A stretch of DNA of 32,000 nt, taken from positions 31,610 to 63,609 of the forward strand of contig WRIS01000008.1 of assembly GCA_009782615.1 (NCBI GenBank), in the 5' to 3' direction. This DNA comes from Eggerthellaceae bacterium. Lineage in GTDB: Bacteria > Actinomycetota > Coriobacteriia > Coriobacteriales > Eggerthellaceae. Below the pieces are notes generated by a model. That model saw only the letters and a program-made list of their open reading frames with translations, was not told the DNA's origin and did no database searches. The position numbers were made by a program, and so were the translations under genes. Positions 2,731 to 28,316 of the stretch are shown one piece after another; the stretch's first letter is position 1; the number at the start of each line of letters is the position of its first letter.

Positions 2731-3693
2731 TTAAGCGGCAACCTCTATTCCGTAGACTGCATAGACATAGGGGTCGTCTCCTCGTGCCGGTTCGGGCAGC
2801 ACGGTGGAGCCAACACCTTCCTCAAATCGAACCTTCATCTTCCCTGTTTTGAGGATGAAGGCTTGTTTTGCGTAGGAGCCATCTGCATAATGCACCGTCA
2901 CCTTGATGGTTTGCCCGTCAAGCGCATCAAGGGATTGCTGCCAGGCTTTTCGCAAGTCTTGTTGCCACACTTCTTCCGAGGCAAGATCTTCCGGGGCAAG
3001 CCAAAACTCAAACTTCACTTCCGCTAAGTTGATTCCGCCATCTTCAGGAGCAGCCAAAATATCGCAGGCAGAACTCATGAGGCGAGTGGCGCCTACCGTA
3101 AAAGTAAGTTTATCTTGGCTGTATTCGGAAATGCTCTCAGGGTCATACGAACCTTTGAGCCTTGAGGTTATCGCCTCGAGAGCAGCTTCTCTTGCTTTAT
3201 CGTCAAAAGAATCCTCACTAGAAACGTACTCCTCTTCTGTGTAAATACCTATTTGTCCCCTGTCCAATTCGAGCTCAACCCGAACAATATCATCTCCTTC
3301 GATGCCAAACATGCACCCCGTAAACATTCCCGTTTCAACACCTGCTGAACCGCCCTGCAAGAGCCCGAACGCCACTAAGCCATCGCTGCTCACAAACTCA
3401 AAGCCTGATTCGGCGGCATAGGCAACAAGAGCAAACGGAGTCCCTCTCATTGAGCCTTGCTCGCTGTCTTGAGAATCAGCCGAGGGCGACAAAATCCCGC
3501 TGGTAAACGTAAGCGCAAATAAAGCGAGAACTGCTGCTGCAGCACCAAGAGATCCCCACACAACACGGACTCGTCGCGGCGATGGAGCCGCCTCTTGTGT
3601 AACCTCACGCACTTCCGCAAGCACCTTATCCTTCAAATAGGTAGGTGTTTCCACCTGATCCATCTTGTTCGTATACGCATTCATACGTGCCAT
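2731..3693 (-). CDS. Putative anti-sigma factor: a single-pass membrane protein with a ~250-aa extracytoplasmic domain.
   Basis: It lies immediately downstream of, and overlaps, the ECF sigma gene. It has a short N-terminal cytoplasmic segment, one hydrophobic helix (VWGSLGAAAAVLALFALTFTSGIL) and an acidic C-terminal domain. The ATG at 3693 has AGGAGG 8 nt upstream. The track start at 3702 is a GTG inside that RBS. Confidence 0.6.
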   Translation of the reverse strand: MARMNAYTNKMDQVETPTYLKDKVLAEVREVTQEAAPSPRRVRVVWGSLGAAAAVLALFALTFTSGILSPSADSQDSEQGSMRGTPFALVAYAAESGFEFVSSDGLVAFGLLQGGSAGVETGMFTGCMFGIEGDDIVRVELELDRGQIGIYTEEEYVSSEDSFDDKAREAALEAITSRLKGSYDPESISEYSQDKLTFTVGATRLMSSACDILAAPEDGGINLAEVKFEFWLAPEDLASEEVWQQDLRKAWQQSLDALDGQTIKVTVHYADGSYAKQAFILKTGKMKVRFEEGVGSTVLPEPARGDDPYVYAVYGIEVAA

Positions 3694-4204
3694 ATCCGAC
3701 ACCTCCTAACCATGATTTCAATCGCCCACGCGCTCGTTGCAAACGGGAACGTATAGTGGATGCTTCGACATCCGTAATCTTTGCGATTTCTTCGGTTGAA
3801 TAACCTTCGTAATAATATAGATGTACTACTGCCCGCATATCATCAGGCAAAGTATCCAAAGCCTGAGCTAAATCGCGCATCGCCTCTCGCGAAATGGCAC
3901 TTTCTTCGTATGCTGGTTCTTCGACTGCGTCAACACCGACGACTCTTCTTTTCCACGCGGATCGCGCCAAATCGTGACAACAGTTAAGCGTAACTCTTAG
4001 AAGCCACGCTTTGAGATGTTCTTCGCCATTGAAACTACTTTTGTTCTTTAAAAGACGGAGGAACACTTCTTGAAACACGTCTTCAGCATCTGCCTTCGAC
4101 GTGGTTTGCGCAAAAGCCAGCTTAAAGACAGAGCTGCCCCACTTGTCCATCGCATCTGCAATGAATGCTTCGTTTCGATAAACTTGTTGGGTATCCTTCA
4201 TCAT
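3626..4204 (-). CDS. ECF-type RNA polymerase sigma-70 family factor (192 aa).
   Basis: Region 2 reads DAEDVFQEVFLRLLKN...HLKAWLLRVTLNCCHDLAR. Region 4 reads DDMRAVVHLYYYEGYSTEEIAKITDVEASTIRSRLQRARGRLK. The ATG ATG at 4204 is preceded by GAGGAGG. Confidence 0.85.
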   Translation of the reverse strand: MMKDTQQVYRNEAFIADAMDKWGSSVFKLAFAQTTSKADAEDVFQEVFLRLLKNKSSFNGEEHLKAWLLRVTLNCCHDLARSAWKRRVVGVDAVEEPAYEESAISREAMRDLAQALDTLPDDMRAVVHLYYYEGYSTEEIAKITDVEASTIRSRLQRARGRLKSWLGGVGYGTYECVYEQDGSGGNTYLFEG

Positions 4205-4306
4205 GCTTTCACCTCCTCTACCTATAACACGGGTTGCAGGTGAAATCCGTCTCAATATTTTTGCGCCATCGAAATCACCAATAGTTTCTTCACATAGGCG
4301 CCCTCC

Positions 4307-4346
4307 TTGACAGAAGCAAATCCGCCTAGTAGTATTACCGTATTAC
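4307..4346 (+). promoter_or_regulatory. Sigma-70-like promoter TTGACA-N17-TAGTAT, with the direct repeat GTATTAC-c-GTATTAC overlapping the -10.
   Basis: ttgaca (4307-4312), then gaagcaaatccgcctag (17 nt), then tagtat (4330-4335). gtattac occurs at 4332-4338 and 4340-4346. The element is about 70 nt upstream of the DinJ-like antitoxin start. Confidence 0.4.
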
Positions 4347-4415
4347 AGCATGATTCTTACAGGCAGTCGAGTGCTTTTCGTTGCCATATGTTTTTGGAAA
4401 GGAAGTTGTATTCGT

Positions 4416-4733
4416 ATGGACAGCATCGTTACGGCACGAGTTCCCCTTGAGATAAAAGAACAAGCGAACGAAATGCTTGCAAGCATCGGAGCAACACCAA
4501 CACAGCTTATCAACGCAGCGTATGAGTATGTGCTCAATAATAAAAAGCTACCCGAAACGCTGGCACCTCCCAGCACTGCTCAGCACAAAACACTCTCTCA
4601 GGAACGAGTCCAAAAACTTCACCGCATCCTTGATCAAACAAGTTTCGCTGTTGCTGAAGAACACTGGCAAGGTAAAAGCTATAAGGAACTTCTTGCAGAA
4701 GGGAAAAAGGCTGATTATGAAGCTCTTACTTGA
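4416..4733 (+). CDS. RelB/DinJ-family (ribbon-helix-helix) antitoxin (105 aa).
   Basis: MDSIVTARVPLEIKEQANEMLASIGATPTQLINAAYEYVLNNKKLP follows the DinJ N-terminal pattern (xRIDxxLKxxAxxxxxxxGLTxSxAIxxFL). The RBS is ggaaaggaag. The gene overlaps the downstream PIN gene by 17 nt. Confidence 0.7.
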   Translation: MDSIVTARVPLEIKEQANEMLASIGATPTQLINAAYEYVLNNKKLPETLAPPSTAQHKTLSQERVQKLHRILDQTSFAVAEEHWQGKSYKELLAEGKKADYEALT

Positions 4734-5163
4734 TACCAACGTTCTTGTTGATTACTTTGGTCGAAGAAAGCCCTACCTACAAGATTGGTTAACGTTGCTG
4801 GTAATCCAAGATTTTGGAGACATTGAGCTTTGGGTATCCGCTAAATCATTTACCGACGTATTCTGTTTACTGCAAAAAGAAGTCGGGGGAAATCGCTTAC
4901 AGCAGATGTTTTTGGAAAGCTTTCAATTCCTTCGCGTTTGTTCGATTGGAGCCGTTGACTTTGAAGAAGCTACAAAAGCCGCATGGGACGATTTTGAAGA
5001 TTGCCTTGTTGCTGTTGCCGCAAAAAAGGTTGGGGCAGATTTTATTATCACCAGGGATTTGGTGGGCTTTTCAAAAGCATCTGTTCCTGCACTAAGTGGA
5101 CAACAATTCATCACCTGGTTGGAACAGGAAAAAGGCTTAACCTACGAACCCTTAGAACTCTAG
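4717..5163 (+). CDS. PIN-domain ribonuclease toxin, VapC-like (148 aa).
   Basis: The product starts MKLLLDTNVLVDY (first acidic PIN residue), has conserved acidic positions further on, and carries a C-terminal ADFIITRD motif. The track ORF 4477-5163 adds an 80-aa N-terminal extension that lies out of frame over the antitoxin gene. Confidence 0.8.
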   Translation: MKLLLDTNVLVDYFGRRKPYLQDWLTLLVIQDFGDIELWVSAKSFTDVFCLLQKEVGGNRLQQMFLESFQFLRVCSIGAVDFEEATKAAWDDFEDCLVAVAAKKVGADFIITRDLVGFSKASVPALSGQQFITWLEQEKGLTYEPLEL

Positions 5164-5201: not shown

Positions 5202-5960
5202 TCACGAAACCACAGGGTCAATCCGCTTTGATTTTTTCATAGTGGTATTGCGATACTGGCTGGGGGTCATGCCTGTTTCGCGCTTGAACTGAATCACAAA
5301 ATGACTTTGAGAGCAAAACGATAGCTGGTTGCTGATAGAAGAACAAGTATCATCGGAACGTTCTAGTAAAAGCTTTGCTCTTGAAATCCTTTCTTTTCTA
5401 ATGTATTCAGTCAGGGTTAGGTCTGTACACCTTTTGAATAAGTGCTGTAAACCATTGAGAGAGTATCCACAAAATGCCGCCAATTCATGCAAATTAATCT
5501 TTTGACTTGCGTGTACGGTGATATAGCCGGCACATTTGTGCACAACTGAGTTTTCGCTAATATGGGTTTTTTTCTCCCGCACCTTTTCCGCAAACTCAAT
5601 GTGCATCATATGAAGAGCTTCAATTAGTTCAGAGACATCGGTCATCTCAAAAGATGCTTGAATGTACTTCCCGCTAATGAGATAGCCTTCCTCAAGAGGC
5701 AACCCTCCCTCCCACGCGCAGTGCATAAGCATACCTGAAACTAGTGTTAGTCCGATAGGGAAAGCTTGGTCGGCTCTTCTTTCAAAAAGCATATCGTATG
5801 CGGGTTTTTCAAGAGCTTCTCTTAGCAGTTCAACCGCGCCCTCACGTACACACGCTAGAGTTTCAGGGATGACTTCAAGGTAGCCGGACTCACCATCAAA
5901 ATCTCGGAATTGATCAAAAAGCTGGTCGACTTCAAGGGCATCAGAAAGAGAAGTTGTCAT
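5202..5960 (-). CDS. AraC-family transcriptional regulator (252 aa), divergent from the molybdoenzyme operon.
   Basis: The C-terminal double HTH reads INLHELAAFCGYSLNGLQHLFKRCTDLTLTEYIRKERISRAKLLLERSDDTCSSISNQLSFCSQSHFVIQFKRETGMTPSQYR. The ~150-aa N-terminal domain was not recognised. Confidence 0.85.
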   Translation of the reverse strand: MTTSLSDALEVDQLFDQFRDFDGESGYLEVIPETLACVREGAVELLREALEKPAYDMLFERRADQAFPIGLTLVSGMLMHCAWEGGLPLEEGYLISGKYIQASFEMTDVSELIEALHMMHIEFAEKVREKKTHISENSVVHKCAGYITVHASQKINLHELAAFCGYSLNGLQHLFKRCTDLTLTEYIRKERISRAKLLLERSDDTCSSISNQLSFCSQSHFVIQFKRETGMTPSQYRNTTMKKSKRIDPVVS

Positions 5961-5972
5961 TTTTGTCCCCTT

Positions 5973-6007
5973 TTGTGATAAATCTAGCAGAAATAGTATA
6001 TATCACA
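5973..6007 (+). promoter_or_regulatory. Possible promoter/operator in the AraC-fdhD divergent region: TTGTGA-N18-TATATA, embedded in the inverted repeat TGTGATA-N20-TATCACA.
   Basis: The sequence is ttgtgataaatctagcagaaatagtatatatcaca. The arms are at 5974-5980 and 6001-6007. Confidence 0.25.
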
Positions 6008-6137
6008 CAAATTTCGCTTGCTACACTTTGTCGTGTTTTTGAAGAAAGCAATACAAGAAACAAGGGACGCTTCATGGAGAGAGGATCGCTTTCCTTCTCT
6101 CCCATTCAAAAAACTTGAAGAATCTTAAGGGGGATAT

Positions 6138-6971
6138 ATGAAAGTTGTCGATGCCTTTTACTCTCCAGAAGCATATACATCATACGGAATCGACTTTTAT
6201 GAGTCGGGGAAACAAAGTGGGCAATCCCACGCAAACATCCCTATTGAGGGCATTCTCCATGTATACATCAACAATACGTTGTTTATGGATATTACCTGTT
6301 CACCAGACAATTTATTCGAGTTAACTCTGGGACGTCTTTTCTCCGAGGGAATTATTTCAACGAAATCAGACATAGACGATATTCGTTTTGAAAAACAATC
6401 AATGCGTATGTTCGTGGCGCTTAAAAACTCTTTTGACAAAGTTCTTTCAAGAACCATCACCATGGTATCCACTTGCGAATCAAACAAGCAGACGCTTTCA
6501 AACCTCAACTCTTGCAGTGATTTGCCTAAAAAAGTGGAGCCGATACCCTGGGACATAGAAACCATATTCAGGCTCGCAAAAGTATTTGCCCGCGACACAC
6601 CGGGGCATCGCACTACCTACGGACTCCACAGCTGCTACCTTGTCGTCGGAGAAAACGTGCTCTTCTGCTGCGAAGATCTCGGCCGCCACAATGCCCTCGA
6701 TAAGGTTATCGGTCACGCCCTTGAACAGGGAATAGATTTTAGACAGACTTTGGTTTTTACGAGCGGTCGCACTCCTGTTGACATGGTATCTAAAGTTATT
6801 CGAGCACACATTCCGATTCTCGTAACTAAAGCCGTGCCCACATATCAATCGGTTGCTTTGGCGCAATCACACGAACTAACACTGATATGTTCGGCATATC
6901 CAGATTCAATCAAGGTGTTTAGTGACCCAGAAGGAAAATATCAGCAAGCGAATTGCAAAATTGCCGTTTGA
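6138..6971 (+). CDS. fdhD: FdhD-family molybdenum-cofactor sulfurtransferase / accessory protein (277 aa).
   Basis: The FdhD hallmark is present: CEDLGRHNALDKVIGHAL...FTSGRTPVDMVSKVIRAHIPILVTKAVPT. The RBS is gggggat. Confidence 0.8.
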   Translation: MKVVDAFYSPEAYTSYGIDFYESGKQSGQSHANIPIEGILHVYINNTLFMDITCSPDNLFELTLGRLFSEGIISTKSDIDDIRFEKQSMRMFVALKNSFDKVLSRTITMVSTCESNKQTLSNLNSCSDLPKKVEPIPWDIETIFRLAKVFARDTPGHRTTYGLHSCYLVVGENVLFCCEDLGRHNALDKVIGHALEQGIDFRQTLVFTSGRTPVDMVSKVIRAHIPILVTKAVPTYQSVALAQSHELTLICSAYPDSIKVFSDPEGKYQQANCKIAV

Positions 6972-7035
6972 CCTATACCACCAAAGAAAGATTTCTCTGC
7001 AACGCCCACAAAGCAAGAAGAAAGGAAAATGAAAC

Positions 7036-7719
7036 ATGACAATTCCCCACGAAGCCCATTATCACTACGCCGCTTCAGACATGTACCAAGCTCTTAGCCA
7101 CTTCATGTTTCGCACATCACCAGAATTGGCTCAGGCGCTTTATGAGGGAGACTACTATCGCGATATGTGCGACATCCTGGCAGAGCTTGGGTTCAGCAGT
7201 TCCGAAGTTGAATCGCTTACCCGAAATCTCGCCGTAGATGCCTTTGTTCAAACAAACGAAGACGATCTCTTTCATACGATTAGAAAAGACTACACCCATC
7301 TTTTTAGTAATCCAAAAATCAGCGTGATGACCCCCTACGAAAGTCGATTTCTTGGATATGAGGAGGACAAAAAAGGACAGGACGTTCCTTTAGGAACCAT
7401 TGTGGTAGACATTTCTCGCATATATAAAGAAAACGGATTTAGTATCCCGACTACACCACAAGAACGCAGCGACCACATGGGCGTAGAGTTAATCTTTATG
7501 CAAATTCTCCAGAAAAACTTAGGCTGCATGATTGAAGCGGGCGACAGCGCAAAGCGTCAAGAAATCGAAGAAACAATGAAGAATTTCTTGGACAAACATC
7601 TTAGTGTCTGGGGAATCAGTTTCTTCAACGCCATAACTGAAAAGGCGCAAGAAGATGTCTACCGAACAATCGGTGCAATCGGTACAGCCTTTCTCAAAAA
7701 AGAACTTCAGCAAACTTAA
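7036..7719 (+). CDS. TorD/DmsD-family redox-enzyme maturation chaperone (227 aa).
   Basis: Size and position (directly upstream of a Tat-signal molybdoenzyme) fit. Motifs DYTHLF...P.ES and ERSDHMGVELIFMQIL match the TorD-family signature (E.PDH...EL.FM). Confidence 0.7.
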   Translation: MTIPHEAHYHYAASDMYQALSHFMFRTSPELAQALYEGDYYRDMCDILAELGFSSSEVESLTRNLAVDAFVQTNEDDLFHTIRKDYTHLFSNPKISVMTPYESRFLGYEEDKKGQDVPLGTIVVDISRIYKENGFSIPTTPQERSDHMGVELIFMQILQKNLGCMIEAGDSAKRQEIEETMKNFLDKHLSVWGISFFNAITEKAQEDVYRTIGAIGTAFLKKELQQT

Positions 7720-7791
7720 GCCTCGTGGGCATGGCAAGACTTTAGAAGGAGCAGGACAGATAAGTACTGAAAGGACGAAAGGAGAGAAATA

Positions 7792-10512
7792 ATGGGAGAA
7801 GAGAAGAGGGGCATAAGCCGTCGCAGCTTCATTACTGGAGCGTTGGGAACGGCGGCGGTTATGAGCACTATGGGAGGAGGTCTTATCGGATGCACGCTAG
7901 AAAACAAAGAAGAAGATTTAACAAGCATTTCTACGGGAACGTGGATACCTACCACCTGTAACATGTGTTTCAACAACTGCGCCATCCTCGTTCGCGTTGT
8001 TGATGGCGTTGCCATGGAAATCAAGGGCAATCCCAATTCAACGGTTGGTGGCGGACGCCTATGCGCAAAAGGGGCATCAGGGCTTATGCAATTATACGAT
8101 CCGTATCGTATAACAAAGCCTTTGATAAGAACGAATCCAGAAAAAGGCATCGGCATCGATCCAGGCTGGGAAGAAATAACCTGGGAAGAGGCAATGGGTC
8201 TCTACATTGGAAAGCTTGCCGCCTATTCTGCTGAAGACCAAAGATACGTAGCAGGATCTTCGATGGTTTCAAACCTAGGAACCATTTATGCTCGGGCGGC
8301 GCTCAATGCGGCTATGGGCGGCATGCCCGAAACGGCAATATCGGATATCTGCGGTTCGGGAACACACGGAAACCAGGAATTGCTTACCGCCACCGGTAAT
8401 GCTTCACCAGACTATGCTTACTGTAACTATGTTATACAGTTCGGCATACAAGCCGGAACCGCCACCCGCCATGGCTTCAACATGACCGCCAAGATGTTTG
8501 CCGACAGAAGAGCAGAAGGATGCAAGCTGGTAAACTTTGACCCGCATATGAGTGCTGCGGGCGACAAGGCTGACGAATGGGTTCCTCTTGTTCCCGGAAC
8601 CGATGCCGTTGTAGCCCTAGCAATGGCCAATGTACTTGCGAATGAAGTGGAAATCTATGACAGAGATTTTCTCACAAACCGTTCAAACGGTCCGTCTCTG
8701 GTTGACACTGAAACCGGGCGCGTTATTCGAGACAAGGACACACAAAAAGCTTTGTACTGGGATGAAGACACCTCATCAGCACAACCCTACGACAAAGCAA
8801 CAACGCCGGCTCTTGAAGGAAGCTTTGAGGTTGATGGAAAAGCCTGCAAAACCGCCTGGACCTTAAACCGGGAGCACTTAGAAACCTACACTCCTGAATA
8901 TGCGGAGAAAATTTCGACTGTTCCCGCCGCCTCTATCCGCAGAATCGCACGTGAGTTTGGTGAGGCCGCTTGCATCGGTCAGACCATCGAAATTGAAGGA
9001 TACACGCTCCCGTATCGACCCGTTGCAGTCGATTCCTTCTCAGGAGTATCACGGCATAAGCATAGCTGGCTTAGCAACTGGGCATGTTTGCAGCTCAACA
9101 CTATCGTCGGTTCATGCAACGCAGTCGGTGGCTATATCGGCTTTGGTCCAAAATGCAACGGATATAGCGACACATCCCCCATCAAGTGGGCACCCGGCGT
9201 TTGGGAAGAAGATGGTTTGATTAACTATACCAGCCTCATCTCCCCTGCCTCAGGTCCCGAATCCATGTATGAAGCTGTACGCAGCGGCATCAGCGTACCC
9301 GAAACAAAAGATATGCTGAGTCTTATGCCGTTTGGTATGGACTATCATTTCTACTACATCAATCAAAAAGACCCTGCAACCTTTAACAATCTTTGCGTTA
9401 AGTCAAAAATGCTGATTGCCTATGGATGCAATCCGCTTAAATGGTGGGGGGATTTTGAAGACCAGGAACAACTCCTCAAGGATTATGAGTACGTTATTGG
9501 AAGCGACCTTTACCTAACCGACGCGTCTTATTACTTTGACCTATTCATACCAGAAGCAACCTATCTCGAGCGATACGATGTTTTTGAACACATGTTCTTG
9601 GCGCATCGCCATCTTGGCGGAATAGATAGCAAGTGGAACTTCCTTATACGCCAGCCTGTTGTTGAAGCGCGCGATGGCTGTTTAGGAAATTGGGAGTTTT
9701 GCTGCGAAGCTGCCTGGATGGCAGGCCCTGAATCAAATGCCGGTTTTGCAACGGTGCTTAACTATGTGCATTTGATTATGGAACACAACCCGCTTCCCAC
9801 CGATCAAAAGATTACACCTGAAATGGTTCTTGATGCCGGCTATAAAACCTATATCGATGCCGAACACGACCTTGAATGGTTCAAAGAAAATGGCAGCTAC
9901 ATTTACCCACGTAAGGCCGACGAGGTCTACATCTGGGCTGATGGTAGCGAAGGCAGGGTTCCTGTCTATATGGATATCATGTTTGAGGCAAAAGAGAAAG
10001 TTGGTGCTATCGTTGAGGAAAACAAAATTCCCTGGGAGCTTGACGATTATCAGCCTCTACCCGACTGGAAACCTTGTCCCGATTATGAAATCACGGATTC
10101 CGACTACACTATCATGCCCATCTATTGGACCAACCAATCCAACGTCGACACCTGGTCTGTATACAATGCATACCTTAATGAATTGAACGAAAGTGACCCT
10201 TATGGCTATGCCATCGAAATAAACAGTGCCACTGCCGCAGAAAAAGACATTAAAGACGGGGATGCCATTTCCTTGACAAACATTGTTGGCAAATCTGTAT
10301 CAGGTATCGCAATGACATCGGAAGCCGTTCATCCTCAGTGCGTTTCGGTAATTGGTGGCCACTGGAACTCTCAATCCGAGTTCATTCCAACAGGCAAGGG
10401 TAAGGGCACTGGCATAGTCGATCTCGTCTACGGAAGCCTTAATCCTATTCGCTATGATCATCTATGCAATGCTTTTGACCAGTGCGTCCGCGTAAAGCTT
10501 GAGAAGATTTAG
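7792..10512 (+). CDS. Tat-exported molybdopterin (bis-MGD) oxidoreductase catalytic subunit of the DMSO-reductase superfamily (906 aa). Substrate unknown.
   Basis: A twin-arginine motif (SRRSFITG) is followed by a lipobox-like LIGC. The N-terminal FS0 motif is C-x2-C-x3-C-x27-C (CNMCFNNC...LCAKG). Candidate Mo-ligand Cys in SDICGSGTHG at codon 187 (nt 8350-8352). Length and the C-terminal beta-barrel-like domain fit the family. The RBS is aaaggagag. Confidence 0.85.
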   Translation: MGEEKRGISRRSFITGALGTAAVMSTMGGGLIGCTLENKEEDLTSISTGTWIPTTCNMCFNNCAILVRVVDGVAMEIKGNPNSTVGGGRLCAKGASGLMQLYDPYRITKPLIRTNPEKGIGIDPGWEEITWEEAMGLYIGKLAAYSAEDQRYVAGSSMVSNLGTIYARAALNAAMGGMPETAISDICGSGTHGNQELLTATGNASPDYAYCNYVIQFGIQAGTATRHGFNMTAKMFADRRAEGCKLVNFDPHMSAAGDKADEWVPLVPGTDAVVALAMANVLANEVEIYDRDFLTNRSNGPSLVDTETGRVIRDKDTQKALYWDEDTSSAQPYDKATTPALEGSFEVDGKACKTAWTLNREHLETYTPEYAEKISTVPAASIRRIAREFGEAACIGQTIEIEGYTLPYRPVAVDSFSGVSRHKHSWLSNWACLQLNTIVGSCNAVGGYIGFGPKCNGYSDTSPIKWAPGVWEEDGLINYTSLISPASGPESMYEAVRSGISVPETKDMLSLMPFGMDYHFYYINQKDPATFNNLCVKSKMLIAYGCNPLKWWGDFEDQEQLLKDYEYVIGSDLYLTDASYYFDLFIPEATYLERYDVFEHMFLAHRHLGGIDSKWNFLIRQPVVEARDGCLGNWEFCCEAAWMAGPESNAGFATVLNYVHLIMEHNPLPTDQKITPEMVLDAGYKTYIDAEHDLEWFKENGSYIYPRKADEVYIWADGSEGRVPVYMDIMFEAKEKVGAIVEENKIPWELDDYQPLPDWKPCPDYEITDSDYTIMPIYWTNQSNVDTWSVYNAYLNELNESDPYGYAIEINSATAAEKDIKDGDAISLTNIVGKSVSGIAMTSEAVHPQCVSVIGGHWNSQSEFIPTGKGKGTGIVDLVYGSLNPIRYDHLCNAFDQCVRVKLEKI

Positions 10513-10523
10513 GGAGGAAAGAA

Positions 10524-11144
10524 ATGTCTTATTCTATGGTTATAGACTTAAAAAGATGTGTTGGCTGCAGTGGCTGCGTAACAAACTGCAAAGCATCGAA
10601 CGGCACGTCTCCCGAAATGGCGCGTTCGTGGGTGGATCGATCTCTTGAGGGCAAATATCCCGACGCGAGAAGGAGCATCGTGCCAAAACTCTGCAATCAG
10701 TGCGACAATCCGCCTTGTATCCTTGTTTGCCCCGTTGAAGACACTACGTTCAAAGACGACAGTGGCGTTGTCCTCATCGACAAAGAACTTTGCATAGGCT
10801 GTCAAAGCTGCATATCCGCCTGCCCTTATGGCGCACGAAAATACCGTGCGGATGCCATGGGTTATTTTGGCAGCGAGCTCACGCAATATGAAGAAGTCGC
10901 ATACCAAAATATGCCAGAAAACACAGTGGATAAATGCGACTTTTGCATGGGAAGAACGCCTGAAGGTCAAGTGCCCGAACCAGCCTGTGTACGATCTTGT
11001 GTGGCTGGAGCGCGTTTCTTTGGCACGACTGAAGAAATGAAGGGCTTTATAGATTCGTCCGGCCGAGATAGCTATAGGCTCTTAGAAAACATGCAGACGG
11101 AGCCCAATGTTATTTATCTTTCGGATTTTGTTAACACAGTGTAA
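10524..11144 (+). CDS. 4x[4Fe-4S] ferredoxin-type electron-transfer subunit, DmsB/PsrB-like (206 aa).
   Basis: Four Cys groups are present: CVGCSGCVTNC, CNQCDNPPCILVCP, CIGCQSCISACP and CDFC...CVRSC. There is no signal peptide of its own. The RBS is GGGAGGAAAG, and the gene starts 11 nt after the catalytic subunit stop. Confidence 0.85.
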   Translation: MSYSMVIDLKRCVGCSGCVTNCKASNGTSPEMARSWVDRSLEGKYPDARRSIVPKLCNQCDNPPCILVCPVEDTTFKDDSGVVLIDKELCIGCQSCISACPYGARKYRADAMGYFGSELTQYEEVAYQNMPENTVDKCDFCMGRTPEGQVPEPACVRSCVAGARFFGTTEEMKGFIDSSGRDSYRLLENMQTEPNVIYLSDFVNTV

Positions 11145-11284: not shown

Positions 11285-11698
11285 CTACCAGACAGAATCA
11301 ATCCAGGGATGATTTTTGATTTGAGCATCATCAGTGATGACCGTTAGGTTTTCAAGTGATGCCTGTGCCACAATGAAACGGTCAAAAGGATCTCGGTGTG
11401 ACCAATCCATGCTTCCCGCTAAATGGGTATGGGCAAGTGTTAAAGGTAAATCCTCAACACCAAGTTGTTGGGCAAACTGCGTGTAGTTTTTGACAATGCT
11501 TTCGTATGCTGCATCGAGTTTTGCAAGACGATATTTATTGGTAGTTTCAAATGCGCTGATAGACGAAAGATATAGGCGAGTTTCGGGGTTTTCGATTATT
11601 GAATGCGCCATCTTGCCCAGTCTATTTGGAGCCTTTATTGCCCAAAGAAACGTATGGGTATCAAGCAGATAACCCTTTTCGAAATCAAAGGTTTTCAT
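11285..11698 (-). CDS. vapC: VapC-family PIN-domain toxin (137 aa).
   Basis: The product is MKTFDFEKGYLLDTHTFLWA...RDPFDRFIVAQASLENLTVITDD. Its start codon overlaps the antitoxin stop as ATGA. Confidence 0.85.
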   Translation of the reverse strand: MKTFDFEKGYLLDTHTFLWAIKAPNRLGKMAHSIIENPETRLYLSSISAFETTNKYRLAKLDAAYESIVKNYTQFAQQLGVEDLPLTLAHTHLAGSMDWSHRDPFDRFIVAQASLENLTVITDDAQIKNHPWIDSVW

Positions 11699-11928
11699 AA
11701 GCCCCACGCTGCCAATTCTTCGTCAGGCAAAGAATCAAAGAATGAATCATTCCAACTTTCAGAGCCTCCAACAAAACCAAGGGGGCGTTTTGTAGGCTGC
11801 TCATATGGAACAAGTCGCACTGCTGCCACTCCGCGATTTGCGATAACAACTTCCTGACCCGCCAATGATGCTGAAACCAGTTTGGAAAGATTTGTTTTTG
11901 CGTCTTGCATGTTCACGACAAGAGACAT
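11695..11928 (-). CDS. Phd/YefM-family antitoxin (77 aa).
   Basis: MSLVVNMQDAKTNLSKLVSASLAGQEVVIANRGVAAVRLVPY matches the Phd/YefM N-terminal pattern. The gene has a 4-nt overlap with vapC. Confidence 0.8.
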   Translation of the reverse strand: MSLVVNMQDAKTNLSKLVSASLAGQEVVIANRGVAAVRLVPYEQPTKRPLGFVGGSESWNDSFFDSLPDEELAAWGL

Positions 11929-11980
11929 AATATGCCTTTCCCTTTTTCGCCTTTTTCTTGCAAGATAAAGGTATCACGCC

Positions 11981-12013
11981 AATAAGACTAAGTCAACTTG
12001 ACTTAGTCTTATT
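11981..12013. promoter_or_regulatory. Perfect 16-bp inverted repeat with a 1-nt spacer. It is the likely toxin-antitoxin operator in the Phd/VapC-yigZ divergent promoter region.
   Basis: The sequence is aataagactaagtcaa-c-ttgacttagtcttatt, 53-85 nt upstream of the antitoxin start. TTGACT hexamers occur on both strands at its centre. Confidence 0.5.
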
Positions 12014-12108
12014 GAGAAGCCTTTTCACTGTTGCATTGCTTCGCGGCGCAAAGGGAAAAATCGGATAGAATGAAAGAGTAGGAAACGGGCGACAAAGCAA
12101 AGGGGCAC

Positions 12109-24159: not shown

Positions 24160-25551
24160 TCAATCGTCCTTGCTCTCGGCGCGCTTCGGTGCCCCGTCTT
24201 TTGAATCTTGCGCGTCGCTTGAGTCGCCCTCTGCTTCTTTGTCGATTTTTCTTTCCCTGCGCAAATCCTTGAGCCGCTTTCCGTAGAGGTGGCTTATCGG
24301 CGTTGTCGGCTGAATCACCCGAGAAGGCGATGTCGCATCGGCGATAGGGTTGATTTTTTCCGCGTCCTCACAGCGAGCAGGAATTCCCTTGAAGAAAACT
24401 CCGTCCTCAGCAACAATTTGGCGCCCAGTTTTCTTTTCGAAATAGTACACGAAAATCGACTTGAATGCAGCGGCGGCAGGAATCGAAACAAGGACACCCA
24501 CCAAACTTCCCATAAGCCCGCCCATCAAGGCACCGATTGCAGAGCCTACCATCAGGGCAATAAAGATAACTGCTGGATGCACATCGACCGAATCAGCCAT
24601 CAGTTTCGGCGTGACGAACGCAGCAACAAACAGTTGAATAGCAACGGTCACGATAAAAGCAATAAGCGCAACCCAAGGACTTACAAACATGCCAACAATG
24701 GCAACCAAGATAGCAGCCAACCATGAGCCAAGGATAGGAATGATGTTCAAAAGACCGATAATACCCGCAAGGGCGCCTGCATTAGGAAGCCCGATAATGG
24801 CAATCGCGATTCCGCAGCAAACCCCGTTTATCGTAGCCGCCACCAGTGTTGCCTTGATGAATCCGCCAATCACCCGCGTGAAGGTAACGTGGAGCATTTC
24901 CGCATCTTGCTCATGCTTTCCCGACACCAAACGCCTGCATTCGCGACCAAGCGCTGGAAGGTCGAGAAGAATCCAAAACGCGATGATAAGCGCAAGGATA
25001 ATAACCAGGGAAAGGCTCAAGACAGAACTTCCGAAACTGACCAGCCCGTCGGCAGAAATCTTTGCCAACTGGCTTGCCCACGTGGTAAGCGTAGAAGTTG
25101 CTTCATTGACCCACGACTCCATGAAGTCGTTTTGAAGAAGCCCGAAATACGCCGCATAAATTTCGTTGAACCAATCAACTATCTGCTGGAAATATGCAGG
25201 GATGTGCTCAATGAGGCTCGTGTACTGATCGCTGATACCAAACACTGGCGAAAAGAGCAGAATGCCAAAGGCGGCAAGCAAAGCAAGCATGCCGATATAG
25301 GCAATCGTGGTGCCCCATAAACGATTGAGTCCCTTTTCTTCCAAGTATCTCACGGGCGTCCGCAAACAAAATACGATGATTGCCGTCCATACGATAACGG
25401 CGAGTGGCATCGAAAGCGTTTGAAGAACATATCCGAGCGCAACGATAAGGAGGACGAGTCCGATAATCGTCCAAACGCGGAAAAAGTTCCTTTGCACTTT
25501 CAGGTCCTTTGCCTGCCCCTGAGGGGAGTGACCAAAATTCAGCAACTTCAC
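24160..25551 (-). CDS. AI-2E family (PerM/UPF0118) permease (463 aa) with a charged C-terminal tail.
   Basis: The body has multiple hydrophobic helices typical of the family, including [21 protein letters not shown]. The GTG start overlaps the upstream stop as GTGA. Confidence 0.7.
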
Positions 25552-28316
25552 GAGCGACCCGAAGTTCTAGATTTTCTCGACGGACTCTCGGAATTCGAAG
25601 CTGGCCGACCGCGCTCAGCAGCAGAAGTTACCTGATGCCCGAGCTTCGAGGCACTCGCTTCCCGAGCGGCTTGCCCCGCTGTTGTTCCGTGGGCTGCCTG
25701 TGCATCAGCCGCTTCTTTGGCAATCTTGTTTGCGCGGGCGAGCGCTGCATCGCGTGCTGCCTTCGCGCCGTCCTCTGCTGTTTGGGCAGGACTTACCGAC
25801 TTGCGAACAGGAGCATCGTTTGGCTTGCGCACGGGAGGAACATCAAGCGGTTTGCGCTGAGGGGCAGCCTCAGGTTTGCGCACGGGAGGAGCCTCACGCG
25901 CGACCCGTGCCTCTCTTGTGTCTCGCACATCTCTCGCATCGCGTGCCTCTCGTGCCCCGCGTCGTTCTTGCGCGGCACGTTCTTTCGCTTCGCGGCGCTC
26001 TCGCGCGGCACGTTCTTTCGCTTCGCGCCGTTCTTGCGCAACGCGTTCTTTGATTTCTCGTCTGCCTTGTGAGGAACGTTCGTAGGCGGATTGTTCTTTA
26101 GCAGCCTGTGCTTCCTTGGCAAGACGTTCTTGTTCGGCGCGGTCTCGTATGGCTTGCTCTTTGGCAGCCTTTGCTTGTTCAGAAAGTTCCTTTTCGGCTT
26201 TTTCTTTTGCAGCCTTATCTTTTGCCGCACGGTCTTTTGCCGCTTTATCTTTCGCTGCTTTTTCTTGATCGGCTTTTTCTTTTTCGGCTTGCTCTTTCGC
26301 CTTTTCCTTCGCGATGCGGTCTTTTTCCGCCTGTTCTCTGGCTGCCTTTTCCTTTGCCGCCTTTTCCTTCGCGGCCTTTTCCCTGGCTGCCTTTTCTTTC
26401 GCAGCTTTTTCCTTTTCGGCTTTTTCCGCATCAAGGCGTGCTTGTTCTTCGCGTTCCTTGGCTTTACGCTCGTTTTCGATTCGTTTTTCTTCTTCGGCAC
26501 GGTTTTGTGCAGCACGTTGCTTTTGTACGGCACGTTCGTCTTCAGCGCGCTGTTCTTGTGCGATGCGTTCTTGTTCGGCGCGCTCTTGTGCGATGCGCAG
26601 CTCTTGTTCAACCCGCTCTTGCATAGCTTGCGCTTGGGCAACCCTTTCTTGCGCGGCGCGTTCTTGAGCAGCCAACATTTCTTCGGCTTTGCGGATTTCT
26701 TCTGCCGCAATTTCTTGAGCAAGTTGTAGTTCCTTGGCTTTGCGAACCTCTTCGGCTGCCAACTTCGCGGCTGCCGCTTGAGCCATGCGCGCTTCGTCTG
26801 CGGCTCTGCGTGCTGCTTCTATTTGGGCGATGCGATCAGCTTCCGCAGCTTCTTGTGCGGCACGTGCGGCGCGCACAATACGCGCTTCTTCTTCAGCTTT
26901 TCTTTGCTGTTTTTCGCGCTGAAGTCGTTGTTCATGAGAAGCCTTTTCGGCTGCTGCCATCTGTGCGGCACGCGCGGCTTCAACCGCTTTGCGTGCTGCC
27001 GCCGCTTGTGCAGCGCGGGCTTCGTCAACGGAATTTTGAGATGTCTGATAGCCCGCGGGATAGCCTGCTTGTTGATAAGCTGCTTGCTGAACGACACCTT
27101 GTGGTGGCTGCACCCGCCCTGTCGGATAGCCCGCTTGTTGGTAACCTGCAGGATAGCCCGACCCTTGAGCCGCCGCTCGAGCTTGAGAATAGCTTGCCGC
27201 CTGAGCAGCATTCTGTTGTGCCTGTGCCCGTGCTGCTTGCGCCTGGGCTTGGGCTTGCGCCTGGGCTTGGGCCTGAGCCTGTGCTTGTGCTTGCGCTTGT
27301 GTTTGCGCCTGAGCCTGCGCCTGTGTTTGCGCTTGTGGCTGTGCTTGTGCTTGAGCCTGCGCTTGTGCTTGCGCCGCAGTATAGGCCGCCATCTGAGACG
27401 GCGTCAGCTGCGTCGCAGGGTTGGTCGTGCGCGGGGCAGGCGGTTGCGCAGCATTTTGCGGCGCTGAAGAACCATAGGTAAAATATCGCTCTTGATCAGA
27501 ATTGTTGGTAGGAGGAGTTACCGAAGCGTTCGCTTGGCGCTGAGCTTGGTTTGCGTTTGCGGCGTTCGCAGCAGGAGTAGCAACCGCAGCACTTGCAGCA
27601 CTTGCCTTCGCCGCACCCCTATTCGCAGCCGCCGCATTAGTCACCGCCGCCGCCGCAGCAGCCGCAGCCGCTCTTCGCTGCTCTTGGGTAAGTTCTGCGC
27701 CCTCGGCGCTTCCCTGCACTGCCGATTCGGCAGGGTTCTTTTCGTCAAGAAGGGCTTCCAACAAGCTTATGGAAGGCTTCTCTGTTTCTTGGGTAAGTCC
27801 TGAAGTTTCACTTTGAGAAGTCGTTTTCGAAGGAAGTGCCGCAGAAACTGCTACGATGCCCGCGTCATTCGCTCTTCCTGCACCCAAAGCAATCGATTCA
27901 GGGCTTGCCTTGCGCTGCTTAAAAGCATTACGGACACGCGAGGTAACGTTGTTCATCAACTCCATGGGAGCGTTTGCCGCAGCATCAACCGCATTCGCCG
28001 CAGACGACAGCGTTCCTGTCACTTCGTTAACGTTTTCCAAGATTTGGTCAATGCGCATCATCTCAAGATTTGCCGCATCCACCGTCAAAGCGACACGTTC
28101 CATCAGAGGGTCTGCCTTTGCCGCAACTGGCTCAAGCGCTACCACGATATTTTCAACATGCTCCAGCGTGGGCATGACTCTTCTACTAATTTCATTAACA
28201 GCAGCACGCGTACGACGAACCATAAGAACCAGTTCGACAACGAACCAAATTAAAGCAAGAACCACCAGAACAGACGCAAATGGCAGTATTAAATTCAAAA
28301 TTTCGGTTATACTCAT
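25548..28316 (-). CDS. Membrane-anchored protein (922 aa) with a DUF948-like N-terminus and an extremely low-complexity body. Function unknown.
   Basis: RBS AGGAGG before the ATG at 28316. Single TM helix ([25 protein letters not shown], followed by RRTR). Heptad-like region of about 100 aa resembling DUF948. Then, in order: an Ala/Ser/Thr-rich linker; an (AQ)n tract; GYPAGYQQ repeats; about 380 aa of E/K/R/A/Q-rich sequence; PPVRKP repeats; and a basic tail. The frame stays open over 2.77 kb. Confidence 0.85.
25966..26031. repeat. 33-bp tandem duplication inside the 922-aa gene.
   Basis: Unit 1 is tcttgcgcggcacgttctttcgcttcgcggcgc. Unit 2 is tctcgcgcggcacgttctttcgcttcgcgccgt. They encode [11 protein letters not shown] / [11 protein letters not shown]. 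Confidence 0.85.
26195..26432. repeat. Degenerate 15-bp periodic repeat encoding ([15 protein letters not shown])n.
   Basis: The plus strand shows reiterated cttttcctt[ct]gc[ac]gc units. The translation is [26 protein letters not shown]...[26 protein letters not shown]. Confidence 0.8.
27213..27377. repeat. Imperfect hexanucleotide repeat (plus strand YTGNGC) encoding an Ala-Gln dipeptide tract of about 55 codons.
   Basis: The translation is [31 protein letters not shown]...[10 protein letters not shown]. Codons alternate among gcc/gca/gcg/gct and cag/caa, so the DNA repeat is not perfect. Confidence 0.9.

Follow-up and report, generated by a model that had tools for sequence, protein, structure and literature searches.

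A cassette for a predicted Tat-exported molybdoenzyme lacking an adjacent membrane-anchor gene in an Eggerthellaceae bacterium, and its relatives

The five-gene cassette and its products

The 32-kb stretch of Eggerthellaceae DNA analysed in this work (contig WRIS01000008.1; hereafter, the window) carries a cassette of five genes for a molybdoenzyme predicted to leave the cell through the twin-arginine translocation (Tat) system. A catalytic subunit of the bis-molybdopterin guanine dinucleotide (bis-MGD) type (subunit A), an iron-sulfur subunit (subunit B), FdhD and a TorD-like chaperone are all encoded in the same direction, and an AraC regulator is encoded divergently from them. The longer open reading frames (ORFs) of the window were compared to Pfam, and all of its six-frame ORFs were searched with a jackhmmer NrfD profile. 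These five genes and their divergent layout had already been proposed in an earlier note, written from the letters of the sequence, and the proposal stands, with coordinates that are exact and identities that are backed by Pfam. The features of the cassette are the following:

5202 to 5960, minus strand: AraC regulator, 252 aa (Pfam HTH_18, 8.5e-19; HTH_AraC, 2.7e-15)
5961 to 6137, no strand: divergent intergenic region between araC and fdhD, 177 bp
6138 to 6971, plus strand: FdhD, 277 aa (Pfam FdhD-NarQ, 2.6e-53)
7036 to 7719, plus strand: chaperone of the TorD/DmsD/NarJ family, 227 aa (Pfam Nitrate_red_del, 3.9e-15)
7792 to 10512, plus strand: bis-MGD catalytic subunit A, 906 aa (Pfam Molybdop_Fe4S4, Molybdopterin and Molydop_binding, all above cut-offs)
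10524 to 11144, plus strand: iron-sulfur subunit B, 206 aa (Pfam Fer4_11, 4.4e-17)

All five ORFs are intact, and the gaps that separate fdhD, torD, A and B are, in this order, 64, 72 and 11 nucleotides long. No Rfam element, the molybdenum cofactor riboswitch included, was found in the window, and the matches returned by promoter and terminator scans were no more frequent than, or below, shuffle expectation.

Subunit A opens with a Tat motif (SRRSF, with the twin arginines R10 and R11), and the four cysteines of its FS0 [4Fe-4S] cluster (C56, C59, C63 and C91) are invariant in a 13-sequence alignment. Also invariant, in the alignment of the A family, is Cys187 (in the segment SDICGSGTHG), which aligns with the ligand-cysteine position of ArrA and PsrA, as well as with the corresponding cysteine of acetylene hydratase and of the dehydroxylases Dadh and Cadh. 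The aligned cysteines of ArrA, PsrA and acetylene hydratase are metal ligands, and Cys187 is a putative molybdenum ligand of A. Because the residue that follows Cys187 is a glycine, the (U/C)-H motif of formate dehydrogenases is missing, and the alignments confirm the FS0 motif, the cysteine in SDICGSGTHG and the absent (U/C)-H-G motif that the note had read from the sequence. Despite the fdhD gene, the possibility that A is a formate dehydrogenase was discarded, as C187-G stands in place of C-H and the Fdh-alpha score is 107 bits, where the cut-off is 666.

A feature absent from the note's description of A is a lipobox, L31-I-G-C34, located behind the twin-arginine motif and a hydrophobic stretch, and recognised with the pattern [LVI][ASTVI][GAS]C. 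Among the Eggerthellaceae proteins of the A family that bear a Tat motif, nearly all keep the lipobox, and neither Dadh nor Cadh has one. Based on this conservation, A is predicted to be a Tat-exported lipoprotein, with Cys34 probably lipidated, and such a lipid tether would hold the A-B dimer at the outer face of the membrane of a Gram-positive (monoderm) cell even in the absence of a subunit C. A signal peptide is entirely lacking in the family members of Firmicutes, Ca. Adiutrix and one Coriobacteriales metagenome-assembled genome (MAG; L043, where L numbers here and below denote loci compared to the window).

Subunit B has all 16 cysteines of four [4Fe-4S] clusters, distributed over four motifs in the family alignment, and has sub-threshold NCBIfam matches to ArrB, TtrB, DsrO and NrfC. 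It has no signal peptide and is presumably co-exported with A. No obvious remodelling sets it apart from the B subunits of operons that contain an NrfD gene. In the B subunit of a very prevalent anchorless paralogue of Adlercreutzia equolifaciens (P0065; L005, 10746-11354), one cysteine of the third cluster motif is lost (CIGCESFVGACP). With regard to the maturation factors, FdhD scores 144.5 bits with TIGR00129, just over the cut-off of 140.9, aligns with PDB entries 2pw9 and 4pde, and retains both the loop cysteine and the EDLGRHNALDK motif; judged by its sequence, it is the sulfurtransferase of its family, that is, a factor for bis-MGD sulfuration and insertion. As fdhD was present in most of the related operons that we scanned with jackhmmer, the known role of FdhD suggests, by analogy, a sulfido-ligated molybdenum centre in this enzyme family. 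The TorD-like protein, with sub-threshold NCBIfam matches to a type II chaperone, TorD and DmsD, is a predicted chaperone for Tat proofreading and cofactor insertion.

The cassette behaves as a unit. When positions 5248-11137 of the window are compared to positions 7395-13385 of L003, homology is confined to the five genes and ends exactly at the borders of the cassette, while the flanks are unrelated, being two toxin-antitoxin pairs in the window and ychF and asnB in L003. The L003 genome has a GC content of 63%, and the cassette is found there at another chromosomal site. Nucleotide identity between the two cassettes is 74%, and GC content at third codon positions (GC3) is 0.42-0.49 in the window and 0.82-0.88 in L003, codon composition being fully ameliorated in both hosts. 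Amino-acid identity is 93% for A, 88% for AraC, 80% for B, 69% for TorD and 68% for FdhD. Synonymous sites are saturated (proportion of differing sites, pS, 0.75-0.86), and nonsynonymous divergence (dN) ranges over the genes from 0.04 to 0.22, with values of 0.04 for A and 0.067 for AraC; the strongest constraint is on the catalytic subunit and the AraC regulator. By these sequence comparisons the cassette is old, functional and under strong purifying selection, and the earlier picture of a Tat-dependent bis-MGD enzyme with a regulator of its own and two maturation factors is that of an intact, selectively maintained unit.

The C-terminal part of AraC is a double helix-turn-helix (HTH_18, 68 bits), and in an AlphaFold model (pLDDT 83) the C-terminal half superposes on the DNA-binding domains of AdpA, MarA and SoxS (Foldseek against PDB). 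The N-terminal domain (residues ~10-132) is all-helical in the model; the N-terminal half yielded no Pfam match (residues 1-130), no PDB fold match by Foldseek and no cupin fold. The note had described an unrecognised N-terminal ligand domain and had suggested structure prediction as a way to approach it; "unrecognised" is borne out by both searches, and what prediction added is an all-alpha domain with no PDB fold match. That AraC senses a small molecule is an assumption. Homologues of this regulator are few (only 11 among 5.8 billion proteins), and the nearest one with a readable context, 43% identical, lies in another metagenome (L049) beside a PF00890 flavin reductase and directly next to a PhdYeFM/PIN pair (4015-4706). 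In the divergent intergenic region, a block of ~60 nucleotides (GATAAATCTA..AGTATATAT..ATTTCGCTTGCTACACT) has been kept in common with the L003 cassette in spite of the saturation of synonymous sites elsewhere, and this block contains an imperfect inverted repeat (5971-5983 and 5998-6010). The 177-bp region would serve as promoter and operator.

The G+C content of the window is ~50%, which is low for Eggerthellaceae. Exact copies of the locus were detected in two data sets, JGI metagenome 3300002505 and ENA sample ERZ27257320; the contigs retrieved for the exact proteins, up to 18.6 kb long, contribute no sequence outside the window. A protein identical to the AraC of the window was deposited as 'MAG: Eggerthellaceae bacterium'. 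In agreement with the assignment of the window to Eggerthellaceae, which these matches support, the nearest genome is 'MAG: Eggerthellaceae bacterium Nt197P3bin52', where Nt197 refers to Neocapritermes taracua, a humus-feeding termite, and P3 to a hindgut compartment (PMC7024585). The window bacterium is probably of termite gut origin.

Anchor genes across the family

No gene for an anchor of the NrfD/PsrC/DmsC type was found in the window, either with jackhmmer in all six-frame ORFs or with Pfam in the longer ORFs, the neighbours of the cassette included, and near the cassette no ORF has two or more predicted transmembrane segments. The statement in the note that no membrane-anchor gene lies beside the enzyme is therefore valid for the entire 32 kb. 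What had been drawn from it, namely that the missing anchor makes the enzyme novel, did not survive the comparison with its relatives, and a cognate anchor gene in relatives is what the note itself had named as refuting it. For this comparison, six-frame ORFs of 48 related loci were scanned with jackhmmer, using as seeds the proteins of the window together with the L007 genes that Pfam annotates as NrfD, GntR and Band_7. Related A genes number ~37 (42-93% identity; 38 related loci) and group tightly in a single clade of a neighbour-joining tree, and an NrfD-type gene is present in at least 26 of the related loci; relatives at 42-52% identity, in fact, encode NrfD within the operon.

The dominant gene order in Eggerthellaceae, seen in at least 20 loci, is NrfD, a small GntR, Band7/SPFH, A, B and FdhD, and its hosts are Adlercreutzia, Slackia, Gordonibacter pamelaeae, Eggerthella sinensis and unclassified Eggerthellaceae MAGs. 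To our knowledge, it is unusual for an SPFH protein and an in-operon GntR to be encoded between the anchor and the catalytic gene of a molybdoenzyme. The NrfD-GntR-Band7 trio was located upstream of A in L007, L012-L015, L017-L021, L023, L025, L028, L031, L034, L039, L040, L042, L044 and L046, and its GntR, of ~130-150 aa, was read as YtrA-like. In Firmicutes, Ca. Adiutrix and the Coriobacteriales MAG L043 the order is A-B-NrfD, at times followed by FdhD, or NrfD-A-B. In L017 and L028 a single NrfD gene is followed by A-B-A-B-FdhD, and anchored and anchorless paralogues coexist within one genome in Adlercreutzia wanghongyangiae (L018 and L026), A. mucosicola (L014 and L041) and MGYG-HGUT-02712 (L019 and L038). 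The presence of NrfD in the operons of relatives indicates that the family is one of ordinary three-subunit complexes of the PsrABC type. From these sequences, the missing anchor is best described as a derived trait of one subclade, neither unique to the window nor shared by the family as a whole.

This anchorless subclade (58-93% identity) includes the window, L003 and L011 (93%), L055 (65%), a partial copy in L027 (63%) and L009 (58%), and the NrfD-GntR-Band7 module is absent from it. Each full-length copy comes with a TorD chaperone and with a divergently encoded one-component regulator of the AraC or TetR type, while L027 is a 3.6-kb fragment in which only FdhD, TorD and A are visible. Because the anchorless layout is stable across the subclade, it is not an artefact of assembly. 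We infer that the anchor is supplied in trans, from elsewhere in the genome. The coexistence of anchored and anchorless paralogues, together with operons in which one NrfD accompanies two A-B pairs, suggests indeed that anchors can be shared between complexes.

Relation to characterised enzymes, substrate and mechanism

No NCBIfam equivalog cut-off is reached by A, whose best score is with PhsA (213.9 bits against a cut-off of 694); ArrA gives 159.1 against 1600 and TtrA 26.6 against 1750. Its best match among solved structures is ArrA (PDB 6CZ7; 131 bits, 2.8e-37), and PsrA (PDB 2VPW) reaches 98 bits (2.7e-27) in the same PDB search; similarity to both is mostly within the first ~300 residues. 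Reference sequences of Dadh, Cadh, Cldh, Dodh, acetylene hydratase and an Arr-like enzyme were taken from the source alignment published with the eLife 2020 paper on catechol dehydroxylases. With these, phmmer gave 105 bits for the Arr-like YP_743256, 103 bits for Cadh (1e-28; 27.5% identity by BLAST), 101 for Dadh (1.8e-22; 25.8%), 66 for Dodh (26.8%), 53 for Cldh (24.7%) and 52 for acetylene hydratase. In a neighbour-joining tree, a phylogeny of the kind that the note had proposed, the A clade stands apart from each of the references, namely the Arr-like sequence, Dadh and Cadh, and Cldh and Dodh. An exhaustive search among 1.84 billion representatives retrieved 370 relatives of A at E<1e-30, and the named members that were sampled among these bear generic names only; in the literature, we found no characterised member of the clade. 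By sequence, A can be placed in an uncharacterised clade of complex iron-sulfur molybdoenzymes of the PsrABC/Arr type, and the NCBIfam, PDB and dehydroxylase comparisons, as well as the generic names, support the view already taken in the note that the enzyme falls in no characterised family and that no substrate can be assigned to it.

The note had also mentioned the catechol dehydroxylases of Eggerthellaceae. The setting is correct, but the link to this particular enzyme is contextual, as its identity is below what is asked of the class. Operationally, a catechol dehydroxylase is expected to show >30% identity to Dadh or Cldh at ~e-34 (Maini Rekdal et al. 2020; PMC7028382), and to be closer to Dadh/Cldh or acetylene hydratase than to other bis-MGD enzymes. 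By this definition A was rejected as a member, with an identity of ~25-28% over partial length, a separate position in the tree, and a higher score for ArrA than for acetylene hydratase. The Salmonella Xsr 'sulfate reductases' were also set aside as not relevant, being DmsA-type enzymes with a serine ligand. Sets of A-B-TorD genes from another clade adjoin family members in L005 (11456-16860) and L013 (14821-18812); their A subunits, of 870-883 aa, have a Tat motif and a lipobox, score ~310-330 bits against the family profile and, in L005, are 23% identical to Cldh and Dodh. These sets illustrate how several types of molybdoenzyme cluster in these genomes.

Among known systems, PsrABC and PhsABC (PDB 2VPZ family) have in common with the window a Tat-exported bis-MGD subunit A with FS0 and a cysteine ligand and a four-cluster subunit B, and the relatives of the window also use a subunit C of the NrfD/PsrC type. 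The window cassette differs from them in having no anchor gene, in an A subunit with a lipobox and ~150 additional residues, and in the attached FdhD and TorD-like genes. The ArrAB enzyme of Shewanella is an A-B heterodimer without a dedicated ArrC, and receives its electrons from CymA. When the enzyme of Shewanella sp. ANA-3 (PDB 6CZ7) is considered, the cysteine molybdenum ligand and the A-B pair without a dedicated anchor are shared, whereas the window enzyme belongs to a monoderm host, is predicted to be tethered as a lipoprotein and has different accessory genes. In addition, the L-R-G-R-Y-S-H segment of ArrA, which binds arsenate, aligns with A-G-S-S-M-V-S in A and is not conserved.

Eggerthella-type dehydroxylases (Dadh, Cadh and Hcdh) share with the window the Eggerthellaceae host, a Tat signal, a bis-MGD subunit A with a four-cluster B, an adjacent regulator and inducibility, the latter presumed for the window, and an I-C-x4-H motif around the ligand cysteine is common to A and Dadh/Cadh (QICKGPRH in the latter). 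They are nonetheless larger than the 906-aa A (952-1017 aa for Cadh and Dadh in the alignment of that paper, 133.9 kDa for Hcdh, and ~1000-1200 aa for the class) and, unlike the window enzyme, have a membrane subunit of their own, transmembrane regulators of the LuxR type and no lipobox. Gordonibacter-type dehydroxylases (Dodh, Cldh and Eadh) are similar in being two-gene A-B systems of Coriobacteriia without an anchor, but they are cytoplasmic, have no Tat signal, measure ~790-800 aa and are encoded beside major facilitator superfamily (MFS) transporters. PadBCD of Thauera and Aromatoleum is a phenylacetyl-CoA:acceptor oxidoreductase, a membrane-bound Mo-Fe-S enzyme with an organic substrate, composed of a catalytic subunit of ~93 kDa, an iron-sulfur subunit and a membrane subunit. 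It may resemble those relatives of A that lack a signal peptide and are found as A-B-NrfD beside genes for short-chain dehydrogenases/reductases (SDR) and alcohol dehydrogenases (ADH), but it is an oxidative enzyme oriented towards the cytoplasm, in contrast to the exported enzyme of the window.

As to the substrate, an organic small molecule seems somewhat likelier to us than an inorganic sulfur, selenium or arsenic species, on the basis of hints that are weak. Firmicutes relatives (Desulfitobacterium and Gracilibacteraceae; 43-47% identity) have their genes in TetR-MFS-NrfD-A-B-SDR-Zn-ADH clusters that may continue with FdhD and MFS, an SDR gene adjoins the L009 cassette, and a gene for an amine-oxidase-like flavoprotein adjoins that of L055. 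We also count as a hint the PF00890 flavin reductase beside the nearest readable AraC homologue. In Eggerthellaceae, moreover, inducible reductases that act on organic acceptors have been documented in great numbers (bioRxiv 10.1101/2022.12.26.521950). In L032, L033, L035, L037, L043 and L045 (42-48% identity; Firmicutes, Ca. Adiutrix and one Coriobacteriales MAG) A has no signal peptide and yet an NrfD-type subunit is encoded, and the clusters of L035 and L045 also hold SDR, Zn-alcohol-dehydrogenase, MFS and TetR genes. Such a combination suggests an enzyme facing the cytoplasm and acting on an organic substrate, maybe oxidatively.

The mechanism that we would propose runs as follows. Upon some signal, AraC would activate fdhD-torD-A-B from the 177-bp divergent region; in the cytoplasm FdhD would, given the role of its family, sulfurate and deliver bis-MGD, while the TorD-like chaperone, again by family role, would guard the Tat leader of A and release it only once the cofactor, FS0 and B have been assembled. 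The folded A-B dimer, whose Tat motif is there to be seen, would then leave via Tat, Cys34 would be lipidated and the signal peptide cleaved, and the enzyme would remain tethered to the outer face of the membrane. The most likely site of quinol oxidation is an NrfD-type anchor whose gene would lie elsewhere in the genome and which would also serve a paralogous complex; from it, electrons would pass via the four B clusters to FS0 and the Cys187-ligated molybdenum, where the substrate would be reduced; reduction is the direction in which we infer that catalysis proceeds. Taken as a whole, from AraC control to the reduction of a small molecule, this is the sequence of events towards which we lean, with some confidence.

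Several observations weigh against it. The closest MAG has two anchorless copies (L011 and L016), with no NrfD within 10 kb of either, and the closest characterised enzymes by score (ArrA and PsrA, with PhsA as the best in NCBIfam) act on inorganic substrates. Those cytoplasmic relatives whose genes adjoin SDR and ADH genes may work as oxidative hydroxylases, the binding of a ligand by AraC is assumed, with an N-terminal domain that, as modelled, offers no recognisable pocket-forming fold, and the lipidation of A is predicted from its sequence. The two anchorless copies of the closest MAG would also fit an A-B pair that is truly independent of an anchor and takes its electrons from a partner other than NrfD, which could be a cytochrome, a ferredoxin that spans the membrane, or a carrier that is soluble or extracellular. 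For such a dimer, ArrAB and CymA of Shewanella are an established precedent, and it would agree with an anchorless layout that is stable in at least four diverged lineages (58-93% identity) and with a complete five-gene unit that moves or persists without an anchor. Nevertheless, B shows no obvious remodelling compared to B subunits from NrfD operons, no gene for a candidate alternative partner is found among the Pfam-scanned ORFs of the window, and the operons with one NrfD and two A-B pairs show that anchors can be shared in this family, and we regard anchor independence as possible but unlikely. A further alternative, that the cassette is the decaying and non-functional remnant of a reductase operon that lost its anchor, could appeal to the absence of the NrfD-GntR-Band7 module carried by most relatives, yet the five intact ORFs, the conservation of every cofactor-binding cysteine and a codon composition ameliorated in both hosts speak against decay, and the low dN against saturated synonymous divergence (dS) from L003, with A and AraC the most constrained, effectively refutes it; the probability that we would still assign to it is negligible.

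Two further readings, both of the substrate, deserve to be weighed. The enzyme could be a respiratory reductase of an inorganic chalcogen or pnictogen compound (polysulfide, thiosulfate, tetrathionate, selenite, arsenate or similar), as its best matches (PhsA, ArrA and PsrA), its cysteine molybdenum ligand, the similarity of B to ArrB, TtrB and DsrO above all, and the NrfD-type anchor of its relatives, as in Psr, Phs and Ttr, would have it. Those same scores, however, are far under the curated cut-offs (694 for PhsA, where A has 214, and 1600 for ArrA, where it has 159) and derive mostly from the N-terminal ~300 residues, the LRGRYSH segment of ArrA is replaced by AGSSMVS, and relatives are found among SDR, ADH, MFS and TetR genes, which are typical of organic metabolism. 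FdhD, moreover, is not known to accompany Psr, Phs or Arr as a rule, and altogether we consider an inorganic substrate of this kind unlikely. Even more doubtful to us is that the enzyme is a catechol or phenol dehydroxylase of a third architectural type, with gut aromatics derived from lignin or humus as its substrates. Its origin in Eggerthellaceae, where such enzymes abound (PMC7028382), the phmmer scores of Cadh and Dadh on a par with that of the Arr-like reference, the I-C-x4-H motif, the many paralogues of the family, each with a different regulator, and a closest genome from the hindgut of a humus-feeding termite can all be brought in its favour. On the contrary, identities of ~25-28% over part of the length, at 1e-28 and 2e-22, are below the >30% and e-34 asked of the class, the tree places A apart from both the Eggerthella and the Gordonibacter types, and size, lipobox, FdhD partner and type of regulator all differ from those of the characterised types. 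A broader speculation, which we put forward as possible although improbable, is that the clade constitutes a third and hitherto unrecognised class of organic-substrate molybdoenzymes in Coriobacteriia, different from the dehydroxylases of the Eggerthella and Gordonibacter types, with a lipoprotein-tethered A and an FdhD-dependent sulfido-molybdenum centre, in which the AraC/TetR-associated anchorless subclade would be a portable module docking on generic electron-transfer partners of its host, and would transform lignin or humus compounds in the gut of humus-feeding termites.

Flanking genes and significance

On both sides of the cassette the window carries a toxin-antitoxin pair; these pairs are context, and not parts of the enzyme:

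4416 to 5163, plus strand: RelB-like antitoxin and PIN toxin pair, left flank (Pfam RelB and PIN_3; L002 gene calls)
11285 to 11928, minus strand: PIN toxin and PhdYeFM antitoxin pair, right flank (Pfam PIN, 5.1e-11; PhdYeFM_antitox in the L001 and L002 gene calls)

A perfect palindrome of 35 nucleotides (11980-12014; CAATAAGACTAAGTCAA-N-TTGACTTAGTCTTATTG) is located between the PhdYeFM antitoxin gene and a divergent Impact_N/YigZ gene, and may be a toxin-antitoxin operator. Just upstream of the left pair (2731-4255, minus strand), a gene for an extracytoplasmic function (ECF) sigma factor overlaps a 323-aa ORF with no Pfam match, which may encode an anti-sigma factor. Farther away (25548-28316, minus strand), a 922-aa ORF, also with no Pfam match, has an N-terminal hydrophobic segment followed by sequence of extreme low complexity, rich in Ala, Gln, Glu and Lys, with (AQ)n runs and repeats of the KEKAAKE type, and it is this low-complexity sequence that causes the strong AT skew at 26-28 kb.

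In itself, the cassette is a fairly ordinary further instance of the exported molybdopterin reductases that are numerous in Eggerthellaceae (bioRxiv 10.1101/2022.12.26.521950), made moderately interesting by its conserved lipobox, its link to FdhD, its portable five-gene layout and its unassigned substrate. What is new here is a coherent and uncharacterised clade, with ~370 representatives at E<1e-30, that has testable hallmarks, namely a Tat lipobox, an FdhD partner, and the NrfD-GntR-SPFH module or its loss. The sharing of anchors between complexes, if it occurs as our results suggest, would bear on how large arsenals of reductases are wired to the quinone pool. Finally, because the catalytic subunit and the AraC regulator are the most constrained of the five products, remaining 93% and 88% identical across saturated synonymous divergence, they provide a good handle to find the substrate of these enzymes through reporter or induction screens.

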